A stretch of DNA of 32,000 nucleotides, taken from positions 12,781 through 44,780 of the forward strand of contig CAJFTX010000067.1 of NCBI GenBank assembly GCA_904420075.1, written 5' to 3'. The position numbers and the translations under genes are program-made. The stretch comes from an uncultured Clostridia bacterium. GTDB lineage: Bacteria > Bacillota > Clostridia > Oscillospirales > Feifaniaceae. Below, one piece after another: positions 8,529-32,000 of this stretch; position 1 is the stretch's first letter, and each line of letters starts with the position of its first letter. Under the pieces are notes generated by a model, which did not search any database, was not told the DNA's origin, and saw nothing but the letters and a program-made list of their open reading frames with translations.

Positions 8529-8639
8529 CCGCTCTCCCCCTTTCCACAGCTCTCCCAGTATACCACTTGCATCTCCATCTGAAAAACGATATAATTTTCT
8601 AAAATCCATTACTTTTTTTCATGGAAAGGGGGAGAGGCG

Positions 8640-9602
8640 ATGCTCTCGCTTCGCCAGCTCAAGCTCTTCCGCGCGGTGGCCGAGGCCGGAAGCTTCACCG
8701 GGGCGGCGGCGCGGCTCTACGTCACCCAGTCGGCCGTCTCCCACGCGGTGCGGGAGCTCGAGGAGGAGGCGGGGGCCGCTCTCTTTGACCGGCTGCCAAA
8801 GGGGGTGCGGCCGACGGCGGCCGGCCGGCTGCTGCTCGCGGAGGCGGCGCCCCTGCTCGCGGACTGCGAGGCGCTCGAGCGCCGGCTCCCCGCGCTCGAG
8901 CGGCGGGCGCCGCTGCGGCTGGTCTCCAGCATCACGATCGCCTCCTTCTGGCTGCCGCGCATCCTGCTGCGCTTCGAGCGGGAGCGGCCGGAGCTCCCCG
9001 TCTCGGTCACGGTGGTCCGCGCCGCCGACGCGCTCACGGCGCTGCGGACAGGTGAGGCGGACCTCGCCTTTGTGGAGGGGGCGCTCCCGGAGGGGGAGTT
9101 CTGCGGGACAAAATTTTCGGAGTATACGCTGTGCGCCGTCTGCGCGCCGGACTATCCGATCTCCCGGCGGCCGGAATTTGAGGAGCTCTGCGGCGCAAAG
9201 CTGCTGCTGCGGGAGCCGGGCAGCGCCATCCGCGACACCTTCCAGAGCGCGCTGCTGCTCGGGGGACACACCGTCCGCCCGAGCTGGGAGAGCGTCAACT
9301 CCACCGCGCTCCTGGAGGCGGCGAAGGCCGGGCTCGGCGTCACCGTGCTGCCCGAGCTGCTGGTTGCGGACGCGCTTGAGAGGGGGGAGCTCCGCCTCCT
9401 CGAGCTCCCCGGCCCCGCGCTCGCAAACGAGCTCTTCGTCGTCCGGCGGCGGGACAGCGCGCTCTCGCCCGCGCTCGAGCTCCTGCTTGACTGTGCGCGC
9501 AGTCAGAAAAGCGGTGGCGGAGCTTCCGAGAAACATGTATCGGTACAAAATCTGCCCTCCCATCCCGGGATTGAATCCTTATGCCGTGAGGAGGACGGGT
9601 AA
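8640..9602 (+). CDS. LysR-family transcriptional regulator, divergent from the CHR pair
   Basis: N-terminal HTH LRQLKLFRAVAEAGSFTGAAARLYVTQSAVSHAVRELEEE followed by a LysR substrate-binding region. RBS is GGGGGAGAGG. Confidence 0.92.
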   Translation: MLSLRQLKLFRAVAEAGSFTGAAARLYVTQSAVSHAVRELEEEAGAALFDRLPKGVRPTAAGRLLLAEAAPLLADCEALERRLPALERRAPLRLVSSITIASFWLPRILLRFERERPELPVSVTVVRAADALTALRTGEADLAFVEGALPEGEFCGTKFSEYTLCAVCAPDYPISRRPEFEELCGAKLLLREPGSAIRDTFQSALLLGGHTVRPSWESVNSTALLEAAKAGLGVTVLPELLVADALERGELRLLELPGPALANELFVVRRRDSALSPALELLLDCARSQKSGGGASEKHVSVQNLPSHPGIESLCREEDG

Positions 9603-9655
9603 ATTCTTCGGATTACGGCACATTTCAAATTCTGTCCCGAACTATTTTGAATCTG

Positions 9656-9692
9656 AGACGGAGCGGCGCGCACACGCCCCGTCTATTCTTAT
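9656..9692 (+). terminator. candidate terminator of the LysR gene
   Basis: agacgg (9656-9661) pairs with ccgtct (9679-9684), with inner ggcg/cgcc pairing. It is followed by attcttat. Confidence 0.4.
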
Positions 9693-10061
9693 CTGAGCAA
9701 AAATATGCAGTGTCGTTGCCCTGCGATCGGGAACGCGTCATTGGCGGAAGCAGGGAGAAGACTGATACCCTTACGCACATGCCGAAATGACAGAGGCGGA
9801 GACGGAAAACCCGTTGGCTGTCATCGAGGAACGAATCCTCTCTCACTTGATGCATCCCGGTGAAGCGCGATGCAACAGGTCCGAGCGAGGGCCTGGAATC
9901 CGCTCCCCGCCCGGACATCCGCCGCAGACAGAAACGGGCAATGTCATGGCTCGTCACCTGCAAAGCCGTTGCCTGCGAGCGATGACCTCTTCGCCCCTAT
10001 CGCGCCTGTGGACGCCGTCTCTCCTCCGGCGCTCCGGCCGGTCACAGCCGCCGTCACTGTC

Positions 10062-12849: not shown

Positions 12850-13689
12850 TTACAGATCGATCTCGCCGTGGAATACCTCGGTGGCGGGGCCGCTCATCTC
12901 CACATGGTTATTCGCAAGCCAGCGGATGGCAAGGTCGCCCCCGCGCAGGTGCACGGTGATCTCCTCATTCCGCGCGCAGTGGCCGAGCAGCACCGCGGCC
13001 ACCGCGGTCGCGCAGGCGCCGGTACCGCAGGCCATCGTCTCGCCCGAGCCGCGCTCCCAGACCCGCATCTCGAGCTCATTTCTCCCGACCACCCGGGCAA
13101 ACTCGGTGTTCACCCGCTCGGGGAAGGCCGGATGGCGCTCAAAGCGCGGGCCGAGCCGCTCGAGCGGCAGGTCCGCCACACTGTCCACAAAGAGCACCGC
13201 GTGCGGGTTCCCCATCGAGACACAGGTGACCCGGTACTCCGTGCCGTCCACCGTGAGCGGCACGTCCACCGCCCGCTCGCCGGGGAAGTCCGCCGGGATC
13301 TCCGACGGACGGAGGACCGCCTCCCCCATGTCGACGGTCACCCGCTCGACCTTTCCCGCGCGCACCGCAAGGGTGAGCTCCTTGATCCCGGAGAGGGTCT
13401 CGAGGGTCATCCGCTCCTTTTTGACAAGGCCGTGCTCATAGGCGTACTTGCCGATGCAGCGGGTGGCGTTGCCGCACATCTTGCCCTCGCTCCCGTCCGC
13501 GTTGAACATCCGCATGCGCAGGTCGGCCACCTCGGACGGCAGGATGAGCACCAGCCCGTCCCCGCCGACGCCGGTGTGCCGGTCGGAGAGCAGCACCGCC
13601 GCCCGCTCCGGGTCGGCCACCGTCTCCCGAAAGCCGTCCACATAGATATAGTCGTTTGAGATGCCGTGCATCTTTGTAAAATGTAGCAT
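12850..13689 (-). CDS. dapF: diaminopimelate epimerase
   Basis: MLHFTKMHGISNDYIYVD, two catalytic Cys regions (KMCGNATRC and ETMACGTGACA), SMGNPH. Start is ATG 13689 with RBS AGGGAGAA. The 469-aa track ORF is an upstream read-through artefact. Confidence 0.93.
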   Translation of the reverse strand: MLHFTKMHGISNDYIYVDGFRETVADPERAAVLLSDRHTGVGGDGLVLILPSEVADLRMRMFNADGSEGKMCGNATRCIGKYAYEHGLVKKERMTLETLSGIKELTLAVRAGKVERVTVDMGEAVLRPSEIPADFPGERAVDVPLTVDGTEYRVTCVSMGNPHAVLFVDSVADLPLERLGPRFERHPAFPERVNTEFARVVGRNELEMRVWERGSGETMACGTGACATAVAAVLLGHCARNEEITVHLRGGDLAIRWLANNHVEMSGPATEVFHGEIDL

Positions 13690-13714
13690 ACCGTTCTCCC
13701 TAAAAATACAGTTT

Positions 13715-13743
13715 ATTTTACTCGATTCCCCGCCTCTTGTCAA
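13715..13743 (-). promoter_or_regulatory. sigma-70-type promoter of dapF operon
   Basis: On the minus strand: TTGACA (13743-13738), a 17-nt spacer, then TAAAAT (13720-13715). This lies about 25 nt upstream of the dapF ATG. Confidence 0.65.
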
Positions 13744-14197
13744 ATTTCGCGGCCCGCGGCGCGGGTAAAACGGACGCCCCAAGAGAGAGGAGCCCGCCCG
13801 GCTCCGAGACGGCGGACCGCCCGAGCCGGCGCCGCGGGGCCATCGTCCCGCCGCCCGCGCAGTTTTGCCGGGCGGCGGGCCCTCAAGAAGGGGCCGGAGA
13901 ATCTTTCTTGCAATCGGGGTCGCCATGTCCCGATTCGGCCGGGCGCAGCGGCTTTTCGTCCCTCTGCGTCGCGCTCTGGAGAGCCGCACGCAGCTCCTCC
14001 AAATATGCCGGGCAGCTCCGCTCCCGACGGAGCAGAGCCTGAAGAGATTTTGGACGCTCCTGCGCAGCGCAGTCGGGCGCCGGCGAGAACCGGCCCTCAA
14101 ACAGCCCGGCGTTCTCTCCCCCCCGTCCCCGTCTTCCAACGGCGGTCGCCGTTCCGGCCGGCCTGTGCGAGCCCCCTGTATCCCCTTCCGCTCCGTC

Positions 14198-15172
14198 CTA
14201 CTGCGCGGGCCGGACCGACACCTCCCCCGAGGAGAGCGCCTCTCTGCTGCCGTCCTCATATTCGACCAGCAGCTCCGCCCGGTCGGTCACCGCGAGCGCC
14301 TGGGCCGCACGCCGTCCGCGCGGGGTGATCACCGTCACAGCCTTTCCGACCGTGCTGCAGTCTGCGCGGTACTGCGCGATATACCGCTCCGTCCCCTCCT
14401 CGTGGAGAGCTCGCTCCATCCGCGTAAGCGCGCGGATGACGGCGGCGGCGAGCGCCGCGCGGCGCACCTGTTTCCCCGTCGAGAGCACAATCGAGGTGGC
14501 GCTTCCCGCAAGCTCGCCGAAATCCGTCTCGGTCTGCGAGACGTTGATCCCGACGCCGACGACAAGCGACAGCACCCGTCCGCTCTCCCCTTCGGTCGAG
14601 AGCTCGGTCAGAATGCCGCAGAGCTTCTTTCCGTCAAACTGCGGGTCGTTGGTCCACTTGATCGAGGGGCGTCTGCCCGCGAGCTCCTCCACCGCGTCGC
14701 AGACCGCCACCCCCGCGCAGGCGGTGACCAGAGCGCAGTCCGCCGTCTCGAGCGGCGGACGGATGAGCGCCGAGAGATAGAGCCCCTTTCCCGCCGGGGA
14801 TGCAAAGCTCCGCCCGAGCCGTCCGCGGCCGCCCGTCTGTCGCTCCGCGATGACCACCGCCTCCCGCACCCCCTCGAGCGCGAGTCTCTTGGCGTAGGTG
14901 CTGGTCGAGTCCACCTCCGGCAGCAGATAGAGCCGCGGCGCGGCCGGCGCGGAAAGCGCCAGAATCTCCGCCTCCGAGAGAACGTCGGGCGCGGCGCACA
15001 GCCGGTAGCCCCGGTTGGTGCGCGACTCGATCTCATACCCCTCCTCCCGGAGCGCGGCGATCTCCTTCCAGACCGCCGCGCGGGAGACGCCGAGCGCCGC
15101 CGCGAGCCGTTCCCCCGACACAGGGGCCTCCGACCGCCAGAGCGCCTCCAATATCTGCTCTCTTTTTCCCAT
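14198..15172 (-). CDS. birA: bifunctional biotin-[acetyl-CoA-carboxylase] ligase / biotin operon repressor
   Basis: N-terminal wHTH (ILEALWRSEAPVSGERLAAALGVSRAAVWKEIAALREEGYEI) and the biotin ligase loop QTGGRGRLGRSF. Start is ATG 15172 with RBS GGAGGG. Confidence 0.92.
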   Translation of the reverse strand: MGKREQILEALWRSEAPVSGERLAAALGVSRAAVWKEIAALREEGYEIESRTNRGYRLCAAPDVLSEAEILALSAPAAPRLYLLPEVDSTSTYAKRLALEGVREAVVIAERQTGGRGRLGRSFASPAGKGLYLSALIRPPLETADCALVTACAGVAVCDAVEELAGRRPSIKWTNDPQFDGKKLCGILTELSTEGESGRVLSLVVGVGINVSQTETDFGELAGSATSIVLSTGKQVRRAALAAAVIRALTRMERALHEEGTERYIAQYRADCSTVGKAVTVITPRGRRAAQALAVTDRAELLVEYEDGSREALSSGEVSVRPAQ

Positions 15173-24545: not shown

Positions 24546-25499
24546 TTACCACTTGAAAAGCGCCGCGCCGGAGGTGAGCCCCCCGCCGAACGCCGTCAGC
24601 GCGACATTCATCCCGCGCTCAAGCTTCCCGCTGCGCACCAGCTCGTCAAGCGCGATGTAGAGGCTGGCGCTCGAGGTGTTGCCGTAGCTCTCGATGTTGA
24701 CAAACGCCCTCTCCATCGGCAGGTGCAGCCTGGACATCGCCGCCTTGATGATCCGCAGATTCGCCTGGTGCGGCACCACAAAGTCGAGCTCTGAGGGGCT
24801 GATCCCCGCCTCCTCGCAGACCTTCTGCACCCCGGTTGTCATCGCGTTCACCGCGAACTTGTAGACCTCGCCGCCGTCCATCTTCACACAGCAGGGCTCG
24901 CCCACAACCGTCCCGTCGAAGAGCTTGCCCTCGCCGCGCGGGATGTAGAGCACCTCGCGGTTGCCCTCCGCGTGGACGGTGACCGCGCGCAGTCCGTCGC
25001 CCTCGCCCAGCACCACGGCGCCCGTCCCGTCCCCGAAGAGGACGCAGGTCGAGCGGTCGGTCCAATCGACAATCGAGCTCATCTCCTCGGCCGCGACGAT
25101 CAGAATCTTCTTTGTCTTGCCGCGGGCGAAATAGCAGTCCGCGATGTCCAGCGCGTAGAGAAGCCCCGTGCAGGCCACGTTGATATCAAATGCGGGGCAG
25201 CTCGCCCCGATTCTCTCCTGCACCAGGCAGGCGTGGTTCGGCGTGATCAGCTCGCCGCGCAGGGTGGTGCAGATGATGAGATCCAGCTCCTCCGGCCGGA
25301 CGCCGGCGCTCGCGAGCGCCTCCTCCGCCGCGCGCACCGAGAGGTCGAGCAGGTTCTCGTCCTTACAGATGCGGCGGCTGCCGATGCCGGTGCGCTGGCG
25401 AATCCACTCGTCGCTCGTCTCCACGATCTCGGCCATCTGGTCGTTGGTGAGGGTAAACTTCGGTGCGGCACTTCCCGTGCCAAGAATACGAAAACTCAT
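24546..25499 (-). CDS. fabH: beta-ketoacyl-ACP synthase III
   Basis: ILGTGSAAPKFTLTND, active-site Cys region FDINVACTGLLYAL, PHQANLRII, YGNTSSASL. Confidence 0.95.
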   Translation of the reverse strand: MSFRILGTGSAAPKFTLTNDQMAEIVETSDEWIRQRTGIGSRRICKDENLLDLSVRAAEEALASAGVRPEELDLIICTTLRGELITPNHACLVQERIGASCPAFDINVACTGLLYALDIADCYFARGKTKKILIVAAEEMSSIVDWTDRSTCVLFGDGTGAVVLGEGDGLRAVTVHAEGNREVLYIPRGEGKLFDGTVVGEPCCVKMDGGEVYKFAVNAMTTGVQKVCEEAGISPSELDFVVPHQANLRIIKAAMSRLHLPMERAFVNIESYGNTSSASLYIALDELVRSGKLERGMNVALTAFGGGLTSGAALFKW

Positions 25500-25975
25500 T
25501 TTTTATCTCTCTTTCCAAGCCGGTTCTGTCTCTCCGCCCGGTTTTTTAAAAAGCCGTTTAGCCGCTCAAGTCCCTTGAGCAGCGCCTCTTTCTCCTCCTC
25601 GGTGAGGCCCTGGGACACGTCGTAGGTCATGCTGCGGTGAAAGCGGCGGTGCAGCTTGTCAATAAACCGCCCCTCCTTGGTGAGCGACACATAGACAATC
25701 CGCCCGTCCCGCTCGTCCCTGCTCTTCTCCACAAAGCCCTTGCGCGCGAGTTTGTTCACCGCTGTGGTGGTCGAGGAAGTCGTGATTCCCTCCGCCGCCG
25801 CGAGCTCCGAGATGCTCATCCGGCCGCTGTCGGCCACCTTTTCGAGAAGGTGCACCTCCCGGATGGAGACGTTCAGCCGCTTTGAGCTGTGGAGCATCGC
25901 CTCCTCCACCTCGGTAATCAGGCGGTAGGCCTCGTCGATCTCGCGATTGAGTTTTTCGCTGAACTCGTCTCTCAT
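25496..25975 (-). CDS. MarR-family transcriptional regulator, FabT-like by position (first gene of the fab cluster)
   Basis: MarR wHTH region (ISIREVHLLEKVADSGRMSISELAAAEGITTSSTTTAVNKLARKGFVEKSRDERDGR). Its stop overlaps the fabH start. Confidence 0.85.
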   Translation of the reverse strand: MRDEFSEKLNREIDEAYRLITEVEEAMLHSSKRLNVSIREVHLLEKVADSGRMSISELAAAEGITTSSTTTAVNKLARKGFVEKSRDERDGRIVYVSLTKEGRFIDKLHRRFHRSMTYDVSQGLTEEEKEALLKGLERLNGFLKNRAERQNRLGKRDKK

Positions 25976-26037: not shown

Positions 26038-26118
26038 TAGTTTGGGTGAGGTTTTCAGAGAAAATTCAAAAAGAGGGGGCGGCCGCGCCTCCCCCAAAGT
26101 ATAGCAGAGCTCCCGGCG

Positions 26119-27192
26119 CTATTTTGTCGAAAGTTCGCGGCGGATGTGCGAGACAAAGGCAGCAATCGGGTCGAGCTCGGTGTGGGTGTAGAGCATCCGG
26201 GCGCCCACCACGTCCTCCAGCTCGTTCAAAAGATACCGCTCCCCGTCCCGCAGGAAATCCGCGCCCGCGTAGTCGAAATCCGCAAGCGCGCGCACCCGCT
26301 CTACCGCCTCCCGCAGCGCGGGCGGGGGGAGGAGTCTGCGCGCCTCGCCGCCGAGACAGAAGTTGGAGCGGAAGTCTCCCGGGGCGCCGCGGCGCTCCAT
26401 CGCCGCAAGCAGCTCGCCCCCCAGGAGATAGACCCGCACATCCACGCCGCGCTCCCCCGTGGGCGGCTGGAGGACGGGCGCGTCCGGCGCGAGCGCGCGC
26501 ACGGCGGCGCGGACCTCGTCCTCCGTCCCACAGAGGGACACCCCCCGTCCCCCGTGTCCGCGGGCGGGCTTGACAACCAGCGGCAGAGAGAACCTCGCGA
26601 GCGCGAGCGCGACCGTACGGGAGAGCAAGTTCCCCGCACAGGCCGCGCAGGACCGGCTCCCGTGTCCCGGCAGGGCCTCTGTGTCTGCGCAGGGCGGCGT
26701 TTCGCCGCCCCCGTCCGAACACTGTGCCGCGCTCTCGCACCATTCCCCCCTCACAGCGGCCTCGGAGGAGCGGCCTGCGGCATCCCCCGTTCCGGAGGAC
26801 TCCCGGGATATGGCCGGGGCAATCGCGCCGCCGTCCAAAAAGAGCGGCTCCCCCCCGTAGCAAAACACGCTCGGGACGTGCGCGATTCCCGCCTGCGCCG
26901 CGCGCAGATAGGTCTCCCGCTTGTCGTTGCAGAGCGCGCTCACGGCGGCGCTGTTAAACACTCGCACCCCGAGCGCCTCAAGCGCCCGGGAGAGCGGCGG
27001 ATTCATCGTCCGCACCAGCGCAAAGGAGGGCGCGCCCGGCAGGGCCCGCTCGAGCGCTCCGCGCCGGAGCGCCGGAAGAAGCGCCTCCTCATACACAAGT
27101 GAAAGCTCCCCCGCAAACGCCTCGAGATACCGCCGCACCGCGGCGCGGTTCCGCTCCGCCTCCCGCCGCGGATAGATGAGAATGCCGTACAT
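26119..27192 (-). CDS. RimK/LysX-type ATP-grasp ligase with a Cys-rich low-complexity insertion
   Basis: It aligns to RimK: NDKRETYLRAAQAGIAHVP, PLVVKPARGHGGRGVSL, GVDVRVYLLGGELLAAMERRGAPGDFRSNFCLGG, YAGADFLRDGERYLLNELE. About 65-70 extra residues (roughly aa 120-187) include WCESAAQCSDGGGETPPCADTEALPGHGSRSCAACAG. RBS is GGAGGAGGG. Confidence 0.85.
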   Translation of the reverse strand: MYGILIYPRREAERNRAAVRRYLEAFAGELSLVYEEALLPALRRGALERALPGAPSFALVRTMNPPLSRALEALGVRVFNSAAVSALCNDKRETYLRAAQAGIAHVPSVFCYGGEPLFLDGGAIAPAISRESSGTGDAAGRSSEAAVRGEWCESAAQCSDGGGETPPCADTEALPGHGSRSCAACAGNLLSRTVALALARFSLPLVVKPARGHGGRGVSLCGTEDEVRAAVRALAPDAPVLQPPTGERGVDVRVYLLGGELLAAMERRGAPGDFRSNFCLGGEARRLLPPPALREAVERVRALADFDYAGADFLRDGERYLLNELEDVVGARMLYTHTELDPIAAFVSHIRRELSTK

Positions 27193-27324
27193 CTGATTCC
27201 CTCCTCCGGCCCCTGCGGGCCGCGACCTGATATGACAAGATTTCCTCCGCCTCCCCTGCGGCGCGCAGGCGAGGGTTCCCCGTACCCGCCACGGCGGACA
27301 CGTCCGGCCGATCGCAGGCCGGCG

Positions 27325-28692
27325 CTACACGCTCCGCCCCAGCACGAGATCGAGAATCGGCTCCGCAGCGTTCACCCCGGTGAGGTCGAAGAGATTTTTA
27401 AAATGGGCGTTGGAGTTGACCTCGCAGACGAGATAGCCCTCCTCCCCGAAGAGGAGGTCCACCCCCGCGAAGTCGCATCCGAGCGCCTGCGCCGCGCGCA
27501 GCGCAAGCGTCTCGGCCTCCCGGTCCGGCGTGAAGGGCAGCATGCTGCCGCCGCTTGTGAGTCCCGCGCGGAAGTCCCCCTCCCGGCCCCGGCGCTCCAT
27601 CGCGGCGACCACTCTGCCGCCCACCACCTGGAGCCGCAGATCCCGCCCCGCACTCTCCCCCACGAATTCCGACACGAGGAAGGGCCGCGGCGCAATGCTC
27701 CCGCAGAGGGCGACAAGCTCCTCTCTGCTCTTCGCGAGATATACCTGCGCGCCGAACGAGCCGAACGCCTCCTTCACCACCACCGGGTAGGCAAAGAGCG
27801 CCTCCACCCCGCGCGCAAACGGCACAAAGTCGCACGGGCCAAAGACGAGCGGCCCCATCACCGTCCTCGGCATCGGAATCCCGGCGGCGGAGAGCGCCTC
27901 GTGGGTCAGCCGTTTGTCGTCGCACAGCTCGATCGCCCGCGCGGAGTTGTAGACGCGGAGCCCCGCCCGCTCGATCGCTCGCGCGAGAAGCACATCCTTG
28001 TCCCAGAAGAGGACGAACTCTGCACCCCGGAGCTGCTCGGGCAGCGGCTCTCCGGGGGCGGCAGTCCCCGGGGACGCGAGCGGCGGCGGGCCCGCAGTTC
28101 CCTCCGATGCAGCGTACGCCTCCGCGCCGTCCGGAGCCGGACGGGCGCTGCGGACGGCTTCCTCCCGGCCCGGCTCCTCCTCCCAAGAGCGTCCGGGGCC
28201 GCGTCTCCCTCCGAGCAGCCGCCCCATCTCCCGGGCGCTCCGCTGCCCCGGTAGGCCGGAGACCGCGCCGCCGAAGAGGGTCATTCCTCCGAGCGTCCCG
28301 GCCCCAAAGAGCAGCCCGCGCCGCGGGGCGGGGCGGGCCTCCGGCCCGAGCGGATTTCCCGGGGAGGTCCGTCTCTCAGTCCCTCCCCGACACCCTCGGG
28401 AAGCGGCCGCCGCACCCTCCGCGAAGGGGCTCTGCCCCCCGTGCGCAGGCGGCCTCTCGCCGCGCGCGTCTCCGCAGCTCTCACCCGGAGCAGACGGTCC
28501 CTGTCCGCCGTCCTTTGCGGTCCCCTCTCGGGCGGCGGGCGTCCGTCCGCCCACCGGGAGAACGAGCTCGGTATTTCTCACGAGCGTGAGCTCCGCGCCG
28601 CGCTCCGCCGCAGCCGTCTCCAACAGCCGGTAGAGCTCCTCAAATTTCTCGCTGCGCAGCGAGCCGTTTCCCACCAGCACGCCTTTTCGCAT
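27325..28692 (-). CDS. RimK/LysX-type ATP-grasp ligase with an insertion of about 175 aa of Gly/Ala/Pro/Arg-rich sequence in the N-terminal domain
   Basis: The N-terminus MRKGVLVGNGSLRSEKFEELYRLLETAAAERGAELTLV and the C-terminal 230 aa align to RimK/LysX. C-terminal matches: DDKRLTHEALSAAGIPMP, YPVVVKEAFGSFGAQVYL, GRDLRLQVVGGRVVAAMERRGREGDFRAGLTSGG, FAGVDLLFGEEGYLVCEVNSNAHFKN. Residues about 48-222 are low-complexity and in frame. Start is ATG 28692 with RBS GGAGGTGGAAAG; the track start 28905 is an extension. Confidence 0.8.
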   Translation of the reverse strand: MRKGVLVGNGSLRSEKFEELYRLLETAAAERGAELTLVRNTELVLPVGGRTPAAREGTAKDGGQGPSAPGESCGDARGERPPAHGGQSPFAEGAAAASRGCRGGTERRTSPGNPLGPEARPAPRRGLLFGAGTLGGMTLFGGAVSGLPGQRSAREMGRLLGGRRGPGRSWEEEPGREEAVRSARPAPDGAEAYAASEGTAGPPPLASPGTAAPGEPLPEQLRGAEFVLFWDKDVLLARAIERAGLRVYNSARAIELCDDKRLTHEALSAAGIPMPRTVMGPLVFGPCDFVPFARGVEALFAYPVVVKEAFGSFGAQVYLAKSREELVALCGSIAPRPFLVSEFVGESAGRDLRLQVVGGRVVAAMERRGREGDFRAGLTSGGSMLPFTPDREAETLALRAAQALGCDFAGVDLLFGEEGYLVCEVNSNAHFKNLFDLTGVNAAEPILDLVLGRSV

Positions 28693-28993
28693 CTTTCCAC
28701 CTCCAAAACGTCGTTCCCCGCGCGGGGCGCTCTCTTTTTTCTCTGCACAGAACAGCGAGAGGGTACAGCCCCAGGGCTCCCTGCGTCTCCGCGTTCGCAG
28801 AGACGCCGTCCGAAAACGCGGGCGCAGGATGCCGCACGCGCAGCTCTTCCCCGCGGCGCACACTTCCGCCGGGGCGGGGAGGAGACGCCGCATACGCATT
28901 TCCATCCCGCGGTGGACATTCCCCCTCCAGCTACGCCGGTCCGCACTCTTCCCGGCTCCGTCCCCGCACAGCGGCAGAGAACTTTCTCCTCCG

Positions 28994-29031
28994 AAAAAAG
29001 GGACGGCGGCGCATCCCCGCGCCTCCGTCCC
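28994..29031 (-). terminator. rho-independent terminator of purD
   Basis: 13-bp stem with one mismatch (gggacggcggcgc / gcgcctccgtccc), starting 10 nt after the purD stop. It is followed by U6 on the minus-strand transcript (plus-strand A6 at 28994-28999). Confidence 0.8.
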
Positions 29032-29040
29032 CCGAGCCCT

Positions 29041-30300
29041 CTATTTTACGCCGATATCCCGCCGGAAATGCGCGTCCTTGAAGCGCACCTGTTCCACATA
29101 GCGGTAGGCCGCCTCGATCGCGCGGTCAAGATCACGCTCGACCGCGGTGACGCCGAGCACCCGGCCGCCGTTTGTGAGGATCTGCTCCCCCTCGCGTTTT
29201 GTGCCCGAGTGGAAAACGAGCGCGCCCGCCTCGCGGGCCTTCTCAATCCCCTCGATCGGATAGCCGGTCTGATACTTCTCCGGATAGCCGCCCGAGGCGA
29301 GGATGACGCAGACGGCCGCATTGTCCGAGAAGTGGATCTCGGTCTCCGCGAGCTTGCCGTCCACCACCGCCTCGAAGATGGTGAGAAGGTCGCTTGTGAG
29401 CCGCGGGAGCACCACCTGGGTCTCCGGGTCGCCGAAGCGCGCGTTGTACTCGATCACCTTCGGGCCGTCTTTTGTGATCATCAGTCCGAAGTAGAGCACC
29501 CCCTTGAAGGGCCGCCCCTCCGCCTTCATCGCCTTCACCGTCGGCAGGAAGATCTCCTCCATGCAGCGGGCGGCGAGCGCCTCATCGTAGATCCGGCTGG
29601 GGCTGAAGGTGCCCATGCCGCCGGTGTTCTTGCCCTTATCGCCGTCGAGCGCGCGCTTGTGATCCTGGGCCGACACCATCGGCACCACCGTCTCCCCGTC
29701 GCAGAAGGAGAGCACCGAGACCTCGGGCCCGGTCAAAAACTCCTCGATGACCACCCGGGCGCCCGCGTCGCCGAAGGCGCGGTCCCGCATGATGGTGTTC
29801 ACAGCATTCTCCGCCTCGGCCATGTCCTGCGCGATGATAACCCCCTTGCCGAGAGCGAGCCCGTCCGCCTTGACGACGGTCGGGAAGCTCCCCTGCTCCC
29901 GGATGTAGGCGATCGCCGCGTCCGCGCTGTCAAACGTCTCATAGCGCGCGGTGGGGATGCCGTACTTCTTCATCAGGTTCTTCGCGAAGACCTTGCTGCC
30001 CTCGATCTCGGCCGCATTTTTCCGCGGGCCGAAGGCGCGGATGCCCGCCGCCTCCAGCGCGTCCACCATGCCGAGGTAGAGCGGGTCGTCCGGCGCGACC
30101 ACCACAAAGTCGATCCTCTCCTCTTTCGCAAAGGAGACCATCCCCTCGATATCGGTCGCTTTCACCGGTACGCACTGCGCGAGCTCCGCAATTCCCGCGT
30201 TGCCCGGCGCGCAGTAGAGTTTTTCGATTCGATCGCTCTTTGCGAGCGCCCAGACGATGGCGTGCTCTCTGCCGCCCCCGCCGACTACAAGTACTCTCAT
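29041..30300 (-). CDS. purD: phosphoribosylamine-glycine ligase
   Basis: MRVLVVGGGGREHAIVWAL, VVKADGLALGKGV, EEFLTGPEVSVLSF, GPKVIEYNARFGDPETQ. RBS is AGGAG. Confidence 0.96.
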   Translation of the reverse strand: MRVLVVGGGGREHAIVWALAKSDRIEKLYCAPGNAGIAELAQCVPVKATDIEGMVSFAKEERIDFVVVAPDDPLYLGMVDALEAAGIRAFGPRKNAAEIEGSKVFAKNLMKKYGIPTARYETFDSADAAIAYIREQGSFPTVVKADGLALGKGVIIAQDMAEAENAVNTIMRDRAFGDAGARVVIEEFLTGPEVSVLSFCDGETVVPMVSAQDHKRALDGDKGKNTGGMGTFSPSRIYDEALAARCMEEIFLPTVKAMKAEGRPFKGVLYFGLMITKDGPKVIEYNARFGDPETQVVLPRLTSDLLTIFEAVVDGKLAETEIHFSDNAAVCVILASGGYPEKYQTGYPIEGIEKAREAGALVFHSGTKREGEQILTNGGRVLGVTAVERDLDRAIEAAYRYVEQVRFKDAHFRRDIGVK

Positions 30301-30412
30301 ATGTTTTCTCCTTTTTCTGTGGGTGAGGTGTCTCGCGCTTTACAGGGGCGTTTGAGCCCCGCGATCAGCCCGCAAAAGCGGCTCCTTCCGCAACCTTCCC
30401 GCCGCAGCGGAA

Positions 30413-30430
30413 CGCCCTGTTTTTTGCTCC
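30413..30430. repeat. short repeat, copy 1 (cgccctgttttttgctcc)
   Basis: The 15-nt core cctgttttttgctcc is identical at 30416-30430 and 30768-30782. Confidence 0.8.
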
Positions 30431-30493
30431 ACTGCCCGCGCTGCGGGGCTCCCAGTAGTTGCCGGCCCGTCAAGTGCCGCGCTCCGTCCAGCT

Positions 30494-30524
30494 GCTCGCT
30501 TGCACGCCCCTGCGGCCGCAGTGC
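30494..30524. repeat. 31-nt palindrome-containing repeat, copy 1
   Basis: gctcgcttgcacgcccctgcggccgcagtgc. It is 29/31 identical to 30729-30759 and contains the palindrome ctgcggccgcag. Confidence 0.85.
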
Positions 30525-30525
30525 G

Positions 30526-30557
30526 GTTACTCTTTTTTTGTGCGAAAAAAGAGTAAC
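30526..30557. repeat. perfect 13-bp inverted repeat / hairpin
   Basis: gttactctttttt (30526-30538) and aaaaaagagtaac (30545-30557) with a 6-nt loop. Flanking gcgg/ccgc extends the stem. It has a bidirectional-terminator-like shape and lies in the middle of the purH-purD spacer. Confidence 0.75.
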
Positions 30558-30728
30558 ACCGCCTCCATTTTGGGAGAAGTCTCGCCGGAACCGCGGCAGT
30601 GGTGGGAACAAGGCCAACTACAGCGACTCTCAATCACGCCTCGCCGCCTCCGCGACGCGGAATAAGTCCTCGCTCGCAAAAAATGCCGCGCTGACTACGA
30701 CTCGTAGGGAGCCGAGCTGCGCTCGGTT

Positions 30729-30759
30729 GCTCGCTTGTACGCGCCTGCGGCCGCAGTGC
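30729..30759. repeat. 31-nt palindrome-containing repeat, copy 2
   Basis: gctcgcttgtacgcgcctgcggccgcagtgc, 29/31 identical to copy 1. Confidence 0.85.
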
Positions 30760-30764
30760 CGTCA

Positions 30765-30782
30765 GCGCCTGTTTTTTGCTCC
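30765..30782. repeat. short repeat, copy 2 (gcgcctgttttttgctcc)
   Basis: See copy 1. Here it directly follows 31-nt repeat copy 2. Confidence 0.8.
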
Positions 30783-30814
30783 GGCCCAAGAGCCCGCCTC
30801 CGGCGGGTTGGCCT

Positions 30815-30839
30815 CTGCACGCGCCTGCGGGCGCAGTGC
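30815..30839. repeat. palindrome-containing repeat, shorter third copy
   Basis: ctgcacgcgcctgcgggcgcagtgc shares acgcgcctgcgg.cgcagtgc with copies 1 and 2. Confidence 0.7.
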
Positions 30840-30897
30840 TCCGCCGGCCGCCTGTGCCCCGAAGGGGTATATTTCCCTGCTACGCGGCACGGCGCAC

Positions 30898-32000
30898 TTA
30901 GTGTTTAAAGTGCCGCATCCCGGTGAACACCATCGCAATGCCGTATTCGTCGCACGCCTTGATCGAGTCCTCGTCGCGGATCGAGCCGCCCGGCTGGATG
31001 ATCGCCGTGATGCCCGCCTCGTGCGCGCACTTGACACAGTCGTCAAACGGGAAGAACGCATCCGAGCCCATCACCGAGCCTGCCGCCCTGTCGCCCGCGT
31101 ACTTCACCGCGAGCTCCAGCGCCGTGATCCGGTTGGTCTGGCCCGGGCCGACGCCCACGGTGCCGTTCTCCTTCACAAGGCAGATGCCGTTGCTCTTGAC
31201 GTGCTTGACCACCTTCATCGCAAACTTCAGCTGCTCCATCTCCGCCTCGGTCGGCGCGCGCTTTGTGACCACCTTCAGATTGTTCTCGTCAAAGCTCTCG
31301 CAGTCGAGCTGCTGCACGAGCAGCCCGCCCGCGACCTTCTTCATGTCGAGCATCGAGGGGTTGTTCTTCTTTGTGATCTCCGGCAGCTCCAGAAGCCGGA
31401 TGTTCTTCTTCTTCTCAAGGATCTCGAGCGCGTCCGCGTCAAACGAGGGGGCGATGATGATCTCGAGGAAGATCTTCGAAAGCTCCTCCGCCGTCTTTTT
31501 GTCCACCGGGCGGTTGAGCGCCACAATGCCGCCGAAGATCGAGACCGGGTCGGACTCATACGCCTTCATGTACGCGTCATAGATGTTGTCCGCAAGGCCC
31601 ACGCCGCAGGGGTTCGCGTGCTTCACCGCGACCGCGCAGGGGCCGTCGAACTCCTTTAGGCAGTCGAGCGCGCCGTTTGCGTCGTTGATGTTGTTGTAGG
31701 AGAGCTCCTTGCCGTGCAGCTGCTTCGCGGCGGCCAGCGTCCCCTCGTAGCCCTTGCCGATCTCCTTATAGAAGGCGGCCTTCTGATGCGGGTTCTCGCC
31801 GTAGCGCATCTCCTGCACCTTCTCATAGGTCATTGTGAACTTCTCGGGGAAGGGGCTCTCCCCCGCCTCGCGTCTGAGGTAGTTCGCGATCAGGCTGTCA
31901 TACTGCGCGGTGTGCTCAAAGACGGCGCGCATCAGCCGGCCCTTCGTCTCGCGGCTGACCTCGCCCGACTTCTCGAGCTCGGCCGCCACCACCTCGTAGT
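30898..32000 (-). CDS. purH: bifunctional AICAR transformylase / IMP cyclohydrolase, C-terminal (AICARFT) part; 5' end lies beyond the window
   Basis: [66 protein letters not shown], and the characteristic C-terminus [11 protein letters not shown]. The frame is still open at base 32000. Confidence 0.93.

Follow-up and report, generated by a model that had tools for sequence, protein, structure and literature searches.

What two adjacent ATP-grasp ligase genes, each carrying a large in-frame insertion, might do in an uncultured Clostridia bacterium, and whether the insertions matter for that function, are the questions raised by the locus at positions 26,119 to 28,692 of the DNA analyzed here (32,000 nucleotides in total, hereinafter the window). 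Gene A (27325..28692, minus strand) encodes a RimK-family ATP-grasp ligase of 455 aa, the A-type subunit, as judged from the open reading frame (ORF), Pfam and NCBIfam scores, and AlphaFold2 (AF2) modeling. Gene B (26119..27192, minus strand) encodes a divergent RimK/LysX-fold ATP-grasp ligase of 357 aa, the B-type subunit. Both proteins pass the cutoff of the Pfam RimK profile PF08443 (21 bits), with scores of 129.9 bits for A and 56.9 bits for B. In comparisons with the NCBIfam model TIGR00768 (cutoff 143.4 bits), A scores above the threshold (176.6 bits) and B below it (82.8 bits); B-type proteins without insertions are borderline with respect to the same cutoff (144.9 and 133.7 bits). The catalytic parts of A and B are 33% identical, and the profiles of the two families align with an HH probability of 100%, which, along with the Pfam matches, bears out the initial annotation of the two genes as RimK/LysX-type paralogs forming one unit.

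The nucleotide- and Mg-binding motifs that had been reported as retained were all found in both proteins upon alignment with the RimK proteins of Escherichia coli and Pseudomonas: VVKE..GSFG (the VVK lysine and the glycine-rich loop) and D...E-x-N (the Mg ligands) for A, the counterparts VVKP..GHGG and D...E-x-E for B, and D-x-R and GDFR in both. The catalytic residues are invariant or nearly so in both families (alignments of 51 sequences each); in B, K208, D251, R253, N277, D312, E324, and E326 are invariant family-wide, and R275 is nearly invariant. A-type proteins are characterized by the motifs KEAFGSFG and NSNAHFKN, and B-type proteins by DFRSNF and EDVVGARM. The A proteins of the GC-rich clade that includes the window species contain Gly where the family has a nearly invariant Asn (GDFRAN). 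AF2 modeling of both proteins revealed the three-domain LysX/RimK-type ATP-grasp fold, with pLDDT above 90 in the cores and Foldseek E-values of 1e-19 to 1e-21 to ArgX, LysX, and RimK. The top structural matches of A were LysX (3vpd) and RimK (5zct), and that of B (mean pLDDT 86) was ArgX (3vpb; target TM-score 0.83).

The pair was initially described as a unit of its own between the purD terminator and the fab promoter, and signals compatible with such boundaries were identified on both sides. Upstream, an intrinsic terminator follows purD (28993..29033, minus strand), consisting of a hairpin (-29 kcal/mol) and a UUUUUU run; its fold has a z-score of -2.8, and 0 of 200 shuffled sequences fold as well. 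Downstream of gene B, there is a terminator-like hairpin with a U-run (26068..26095, minus strand; GGGGG.GGC...GCC.CCCCC followed by UCUUUUU), weaker than the purD terminator and missed by a simple terminator scan, and the MarR/fab genes are preceded by a promoter-like element, TTGAAA-17-TATACT (26037-26009). Gene A begins at 28692 (MRKGVLV, after GGAGGTGGAAAG), a start that agrees with all homologs and follows a conserved ribosome-binding site; a longer ORF reaching 28905 was rejected because the relative L001 has a frame-breaking 58-nt gap there. The leader that separates gene A from the purD terminator (28693..28998, minus strand) was analyzed by Rfam search, promoter scan, folding, and comparison with L001. 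No sigma-70-like promoter was found in the leader, and the search of the leader and spacers for known RNAs or riboswitches yielded only a chance-level Rfam match (E = 0.74). The leader does not fold more stably than shuffled sequences (z-score -1.5). Given a sequence identity to L001 of 84.5-88.7%, vs 82% at four-fold degenerate sites, extra constraint on the leader is not clear. The A-B spacer (27193..27324, minus strand; 132 nt) likewise shows no excess of fold stability over shuffled sequence; it spans 646 nt in L001 and 481 nt in the third clade species, L088, vs a family median of about 32 nt, with the two genes often overlapping.

The A-B module is present in hundreds of Clostridia, including the abundant gut bacteria Faecalibacterium, Roseburia, Anaerocolumna, and Coprococcus, and the B family alone comprises 969 clusters (50% identity) at E <= 1e-30. 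The two genes are nearly always adjacent, and the A-then-B tandem order is kept in nearly all of the 80 genome and 80 metagenome loci that we compared, across about 21 different neighborhoods. In several taxa, the genes abut or overlap, and in some lineages, they are fused to encode a single chain of 570-600 aa; of the 17 homologs that exceed 500 aa, 16 are fusions with A preceding B, as in the gene order. Such adjacency, coupled translation, and natural fusion of the two genes, as expected of a two-paralog ligase, make the heteromeric enzyme suggested by the initial annotation plausible; on the strength of these genomic features, A and B may form a physical complex. Curated family models, solved structures, and papers, as far as we could find, assign no function to the A-B module, and our literature searches recovered no characterized Clostridial RimK-like pair.

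None of the approximately 170 loci contained a substrate gene accompanying the pair. The LysW gene, the S6 gene (rpsF), and cofactor pathways are missing next to the pair both in the window, as noticed previously, and in these related loci, none of which links the orthologs to a known RimK/LysX substrate system. The proposed search for a co-occurring small acidic-tailed protein also came out negative, with no conserved gene of this kind beside the pair in related loci; an ORF of 80 aa that separates B from rpsJ in a Faecalibacterium-type locus was considered as a carrier and rejected, as it has no acidic tail and is unconserved. The neighbors that do recur belong to purine and one-carbon metabolism. 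The window and L001 have purH and purD near the pair, another clade has a short purH divergently placed beside it, 59 of 80 Lachnospiraceae loci have formate-tetrahydrofolate ligase at a distance of one to three genes downstream, and in another species, the downstream genes are ThiD and ThiC. We consider this recurring link weak.

The A-B proteins were also compared with characterized members of the superfamily. They resemble RimK, the S6:L-glutamate ligase of E. coli and Pseudomonas, in the Pfam domain, the fold, and the common VVK, Gly-loop, D-x-R, GDFRSN, and E-x-N motifs, with gene A being 26-29% identical in structural alignments. Modification of ribosomal protein S6 by the A-B pair would be in line with this family membership, with the S10 ribosomal operon immediately following the pair in Faecalibacterium-type loci, and with the presence of genes for methionine aminopeptidase, the CCA-adding enzyme, Obg, or RqcH-like proteins near the pair at other loci. 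However, these neighborhoods are generic housekeeping regions; rpsF linkage is observed in none of the loci, and rimA/rimB neighbors are missing as well. Furthermore, the scores with the S6-ligase equivalog model NF007764 (86.1 bits for A and 47.8 bits for B) are far below the cutoff of 331. RimK works as a homo-oligomer, namely, a homo-tetramer, rather than as a two-paralog pair or a fused module, and differs from the A-B proteins also in that the latter contain large disordered loops. Therefore, we regard S6 as an unlikely acceptor. LysX and ArgX are the best structural matches of A and B, respectively, but the scores with TIGR02144 (134.4 and 52.6 bits vs a cutoff of 275.6) do not place A and B among them, and the LysW carrier, LysY/Z/J/K, and amino-adipate genes are absent from the window and the approximately 170 loci. 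The lysine route of the host is the diaminopimelate one (dapF and an aminotransferase gene are present in the window).

A functional analogy is possible with MptN and CofF, members of the RimK family that add a terminal alpha-linked glutamate to a cofactor, because purH, purD, and formate-tetrahydrofolate ligase recur as neighbors of the pair. MptN and CofF are archaeal single enzymes, in contrast to the A-B pair, which scores well below the respective cutoffs (95.6 and 32.2 bits vs 350 for MptN; 64.3 bits vs 300 for CofF), and we know of no MptN/CofF-type cofactor in these bacteria. A precedent for two sequential glutamate ligases acting on a single acceptor is provided by MyfA and MyfB, two different ATP-grasp enzymes that successively build the polyglutamate side chain of methylofuran (PMC8141765); the hosts in that case are methylotrophs, the pathway is a different one, and the likeness considered here is that of superfamily members. 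The purH/purD, formate-tetrahydrofolate ligase, and ThiD/ThiC neighbors in independent lineages hint that A-B might be a housekeeping two-step ligase building an alpha-linked glutamate tail on a one-carbon or purine cofactor, for example, folate, with the disordered loops of the GC-rich clade perhaps additionally tuning the complex, a speculative proposal to which we assign a low probability.

On balance, A and B probably constitute a heteromeric Clostridial ATP-grasp ligase in which the insertions are weakly constrained, disordered loop expansions. The two gene products would be the subunits of a conserved enzyme, and in each of them the active site of the RimK/LysX type is complete. Judging from the characterized relatives, each subunit would convert a carboxylate into an acyl-phosphate and then attach an amino acid, most likely L-glutamate; both the ligase chemistry and the glutamate specificity are putatively assigned on this basis. 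With two distinct active sites, the enzyme may carry out two different or sequential ligations on a single acceptor, presumably encoded elsewhere, outside the locus of the pair. The insertions would be translated as intrinsically disordered expansions of surface loops.

The gene A insertion (aa 45-224; 28021..28560, minus strand), consistent with its initial description as a large Gly/Ala/Pro/Arg/Glu-rich segment in a loop of the N-terminal domain, consists of these five residues by 71%, is located between strands 2 and 3, and is missing from typical homologs, which are 285-300 aa long. The initial annotation surmised that the appendages of the two proteins are disordered, and AF2 assigns pLDDT below 50 to segments of both, namely, aa ~57-211 of A, without secondary structure, and aa 128-179 of B. 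The GC content at the three codon positions is flat in the gene A insertion (0.82/0.74/0.79), compared to 0.72/0.45/0.87 in the gene A core. The open frame through the insertions is uninformative because its probability by chance, given the base composition, is 12% for gene A and 21% for gene B, and the remaining five frames contain only 0-2 stops. Conservation of the 44 codons upstream of the gene A insertion (dN/dS of 0.23) and of the downstream catalytic domain nevertheless implies that the insertion is translated. Compared with L001, the gene A insertion shows 49% identity with 55 gap columns, vs 91% identity in the core, and its middle part retains no nucleotide similarity, even though neutral sites are 82% identical. 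Due to alignment ambiguity, whole-insertion dN/dS values are unreliable; the only clean estimate, from the single unambiguously colinear part of the gene A insertion (42 codons), is 0.39 (95% CI 0.15-1.1), which is compatible with weak constraint or neutrality alike. Within the species, 13 of the 180 residues of the gene A insertion are variable, compared with 7 of the 275 outside (p = 0.02).

By alignment, the gene B insertion covers aa 114-202 (26587..26853, minus strand), with its disordered part at nt 26656-26811; it corresponds to the extra segment with five Cys reported to precede the central domain. In the closest relative, P0121, the B protein of which is 358 aa long and one codon off the window gene, the NDK and VKP motifs are 119 aa apart, vs 35-44 aa in normal members of the family. 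Compared with L001, the identity is 58% with 43 gap columns in the insertion and 88% in the core, and the density of within-species variable residues is again elevated (12 of 89 in the insertion vs 10 of 268 outside, p = 0.003), being about three to four times higher in the insertions than outside for the two genes. The clustering of five Cys (152, 158, 168, 182, and 185) in approximately 35 residues, including C182-x-x-C185, had suggested a metal-binding appendage, and the Cys count in the window species nominally exceeds the base-composition expectation (6, including Cys111 just upstream of the five, vs 2.0; p = 0.016). Against a metal-binding or redox role, the Cys positions are unconserved in a 72%-identical relative and in the third species, the CxxC is limited to the window species (it is deleted in L001, and the third species lacks it), position 152 varies between Cys and Gly within the species, the relatives have Cys counts at the composition expectation, and the segment is predicted to be disordered. 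These observations led us to reject the Cys cluster as a metal-binding site, and a redox function is similarly highly improbable. The insertions are neither metal-binding nor other sequence-specific modules, and their amino acid makeup mirrors the GC bias of the genome.

The very large insertions are confined to the window species, L001, and L088 (A proteins of 455, 400, and 408 aa and B proteins of 357, 378, and 419 aa), and a JGI metagenome scan detected no further insertion-bearing close relatives (best match 49% identical). As far as the proposed comparison of orthologs is concerned, almost the entire family lacks the insertions, and those of the three carrier species are hypervariable in length and sequence, which is largely the outcome initially named as refuting a functional role. 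Both insertion sites are filled in all three species, the cores of which share only 59-73% identity, so the expansions are old and persistent, contrary to the idea of recent junk. The affected loops vary in length family-wide: AT-rich Lachnospiraceae A proteins carry Lys/Glu/Thr-rich inserts of 30-45 aa at the same loops, P0402 has an Asn/Asp/Ile-rich insert of about 70 aa at the same loop location, and P0393 has repeat-rich inserts. Visible insertions in the 32-kb window are limited to the two subunits of the pair. An origin from mobile elements or repeats was rejected given that the insertions have neither tandem repeats nor terminal inverted repeats, are not flanked by target-site duplications, and recur nowhere else in the window. 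The best reading of these data is that the insertions are disordered loop expansions limited to a small clade, weakly constrained, and old within that clade rather than recent; the loops themselves may be neutral.

There is some probability, albeit a rather low one, that the insertions are selected disordered regions in which length and composition matter but sequence does not and which function as tethers, regulators, or interaction regions. Bacterial genomes usually show deletion bias, and combined with the fixed length of A (exactly 455 aa in all 11 full-length proteins from the species population, whereas B varies by one codon) and with persistence in three diverged species, this bias hints at selection for length or composition. 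The dN/dS below 1 in the colinear part of the gene A insertion and the gain of insertions by both partners of one complex point in the same direction. However, from one species to another the lengths change by 50-60 aa, the middle of the gene A insertion is unalignable, no conserved motif was found, and other lineages have unrelated insertions at the same loops. Moreover, the noncoding A-B spacer is similarly expanded and variable in the same clade, suggesting a general gain of sequence at unconstrained sites. Decay of the pair in the GC-rich clade, with the insertions marking relaxed or lost function, appears very unlikely. The cores are somewhat more diverged from L001 than neighboring genes (88-91% vs 95-97% amino acid identity), and a nearly invariant Asn has been lost from the A motif, but the core dN/dS values remain at 0.14 for gene A and 0.22 for gene B (0.05-0.15 for the neighboring fab genes), all remaining catalytic residues are intact, and no frameshifts or stops occur in at least 11 independent assemblies or in the three species. 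The same assemblies (from NCBI, ENA, and Logan) encode proteins of identical length, with conserved, in-frame halves of the interrupted domain on both sides, and thus refute an assembly or gene-calling artifact, a possibility of negligible probability, in favor of which it can be said that the assembly of the relative L001 is error-prone and contains split genes.

As weakly constrained loop expansions, the insertions are a clean example of permissive enzyme loops filling with composition-driven disordered sequence and bring little functional news. The more useful result concerns the genes that host them, which belong to a large, conserved, and so far unnamed two-paralog, sometimes fused, RimK-type module. 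Should this module build a glutamate tail on a cofactor, bacteria would have in it a counterpart of MptN, CofF, or MyfAB. The acceptor, once identified, would reveal either a novel modification of a protein or cofactor or a small peptide as the product, relevant for the core physiology of these bacteria.

Gene A (27325-28692, an ORF of 455 aa) and gene B (26119-27192, an ORF of 357 aa) lie side by side on the minus strand, flanked upstream by purD (29041-30300, minus) and downstream by a MarR-type regulator (25496-25975, minus), the first gene of the fab cluster. Both products match the Pfam RimK ATP-grasp domain (129.9 bits for A and 56.9 bits for B; cutoff, 21). A passes the NCBIfam RimK-family subfamily model (176.6 vs 143.4), which B fails (82.8), and neither reaches the NCBIfam equivalog models for LysX, MptN, S6-glutamate ligase, or CofF. 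The two proteins are paralogs; they share 33% identity across the catalytic part, and their family profiles align with a probability of 100%. In alignments to RimK, both proteins retain the VVK lysine, the Gly-rich loop, the D-x-R and GDFR motifs, and the Mg ligands, the last motif reading E-x-N in A and E-x-E in B; the catalytic residues are invariant throughout both families. The AlphaFold2 models of the A and B cores (pLDDT above 90) structurally match LysX, ArgX, and RimK.

At 27562-27579 (A residues 372-377), the window encodes GDFRAG: in A proteins of the GC-rich clade, Gly replaces the nearly invariant Asn of the family (GDFRAN), whereas RimK has GDFRSN. This replacement could alter substrate handling in the clade. 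One population variant, the A protein P0001, departs from the window protein in closely clustered changes at residues 415-422 (window 27427-27450; FGEEGYLV to PGPNGPLI); the altered stretch shares some features with the consensus of the other members and appears to reflect either a chimeric assembly or a recombined patch.

Almost all of the loci compared, 80 from species-representative genomes and 80 from metagenomes, have A followed directly by B; in several taxa the two genes touch or overlap, and among the 17 homologs exceeding 500 aa, 16 are A-B fusions that keep the gene order. Together with the invariant catalytic residues, this organization supports the proposal of the initial annotation that the pair may be a heteromeric ligase, with two active sites in a presumed complex. 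The proposed action of two ligases has a precedent in methylofuran biosynthesis, where two ATP-grasp glutamate ligases, MyfA and MyfB, act sequentially on one acceptor (PMC8141765).

Two terminators, a strong one downstream of purD and a weaker one downstream of B, delimit the A-B unit, and the sole sigma-70-like site precedes the MarR/fab genes. The 306-nt leader of A (28693-28998, minus) yielded neither a promoter-like site nor an Rfam match; a CCCCGCGCGGGG hairpin lies at its end, ~20 nt before the ribosome-binding site, and its conservation is slightly above that of four-fold degenerate sites. The non-coding A-B spacer is expanded and variable in the GC-rich clade, spanning 132 nt in the window (27193-27324, minus), 481 nt in L088 (1329-1809), a locus of a related species, and 646 nt in L001 (GCA_029782595.1, contig JARCCX010010304.1; 11204-11849), the closest contig from another species; the family median is ~32 nt, and in most other taxa A and B abut or overlap.

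Homolog lengths (usually 285-300 aa for A-type and 260-286 aa for B-type proteins), alignments, and AlphaFold2 models confirm the large insertions noted initially in both ligases. Compared with typical homologs, A has ~180 extra residues (aa 45-224) flanked by the second and third strands of the N-terminal domain, and B has ~75-90 (aa 114-202), which separate the NDK motif from the VVKP strand. At aa ~57-211 of A and 128-179 of B, pLDDT is below 50 without secondary structure, in agreement with the suggested disordered appendages. Gly, Ala, Pro, Arg, and Glu make up 71% of the A insertion, in which GC content by codon position is flat (0.82/0.74/0.79), as against the usual coding pattern of the core (0.72/0.45/0.87). 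Because an open frame across the insertions has a chance expectation of 12-21% and other frames are nearly open as well, the open frame itself is uninformative; 44 conserved codons upstream and the catalytic domain downstream suggest that the A insertion is translated. Searches of the insertions for repeats, transposon-like ends, and copies at other sites were negative. The unusually GC-rich dapF-birA spacer (~0.79) indicates that GC-rich filler occurs outside genes too. The dapF ORF (12850-14259) carries a ~190-aa GC-rich N-terminal extension without a domain match (window 13700-14260), and the true start is likely near MLHFTKMHG.

Three species carry the insertions: that of the window, sampled in at least 11 independent assemblies; that of L001, with the same gene order (purH-purD-A-B-marR-fabH); and a third, represented by the proteins P0003 and P0123 on one contig type. 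Compared with L001, the cores are conserved without gap columns (A, 91% amino acid identity and dN/dS 0.14; B, 88% and 0.22), and the insertions show 49% identity with 55 gap columns in A and 58% with 43 in B, dN/dS being unreliable for both; the adjacent fab genes show 95-97% identity and dN/dS of 0.05-0.15. In DNA, colinearity with L001 extends over the first ~140 nt of the A insertion (dN/dS 0.39, CI 0.15-1.1), and the remainder has no recognizable DNA similarity despite 82% identity at four-fold degenerate sites. The L001 contig comes from an error-prone assembly (e.g., 8605-10000), and single indels there need caution; many of its genes are split or truncated (purD, 333 aa; purE, 44 aa; fabK, 207 aa; fabG, two pieces), and the 3' end of purD is duplicated. 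Within the window species, variable residues are 3-4 times denser inside the insertions. The five B-insertion Cys residues, from which a metal-binding module had been proposed, lack conservation (a deletion removes the CxxC in L001, and C152 is polymorphic within the window species), and Cys counts in relatives equal the base-composition expectation; this candidate was therefore rejected.

The same loops are extended in other lineages. AT-rich Lachnospiraceae have 30-45 extra Lys/Glu/Thr-rich residues in the A-type loop (P0031, P0039, P0077, and P0105), and an exhaustive profile search for long B-family variants yielded P0402, with a ~70-aa Asn/Asp/Ile-rich insertion at exactly the site seen in the window B; P0393, with repeat-rich insertions in both loops that contain tandem peptide repeats of YDVGRKSESNMLEV-like units; and P0391 and P0301, with insertions in these and other loops. 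These B-family insertions are independent, and the window thus represents the extreme, GC-flavored end of a family-wide tendency. The best explanation of the insertions is tolerated GC-rich loop filler, as the initial annotation had cautioned. On one point that caution needs correcting: within the clade the expansions are old, not recent. On a minority reading, selection would act on their length and composition, as is typical of disordered regions; persistence in three diverged species favors this, as does the length fixed within the window species (every A protein has 455 aa, and B has 357 or 358 aa).

The neighborhoods of the pair vary widely, with ~21 distinct types counted. In Lachnospiraceae the arrangement is ClpP-FtsK-A-B-(HAD)-formate-tetrahydrofolate ligase, for example, and in Faecalibacterium-type contigs A-B lies ahead of the S10 ribosomal operon; other types have SpoIIGA with a sigma factor, LeuA and the CCA-adding enzyme on opposite sides of the pair, phosphofructokinase, or methionine aminopeptidase. 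In line with the initial view that no substrate gene is linked, neither LysW nor rpsF was found traveling with the pair in the fetched loci, and the small acidic-tailed partner that had been envisaged was likewise not found there. Four context types repeatedly place purine or one-carbon genes next to the pair: purH and purD upstream in the window (29041-31992); a short, divergently oriented purH (391 aa) adjoining the pair in another clade (L136, L141, L153, L159, L164, and L166); formate-tetrahydrofolate ligase, which 59 of 80 Lachnospiraceae loci (L003-L082) have 1-3 genes downstream; and ThiD and ThiC downstream in one other species (L092-L107). By a rough post hoc estimate, this recurrence is above chance (~0.01), and since the contexts are non-independent and the choice of gene category followed inspection of the data, it is a weak substrate hint and a lead only.

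Literature searches and curated models yielded no description of the A-B module, which is an uncharacterized variant of a known enzyme kind. The module is of moderate interest, and the insertions themselves are of little.
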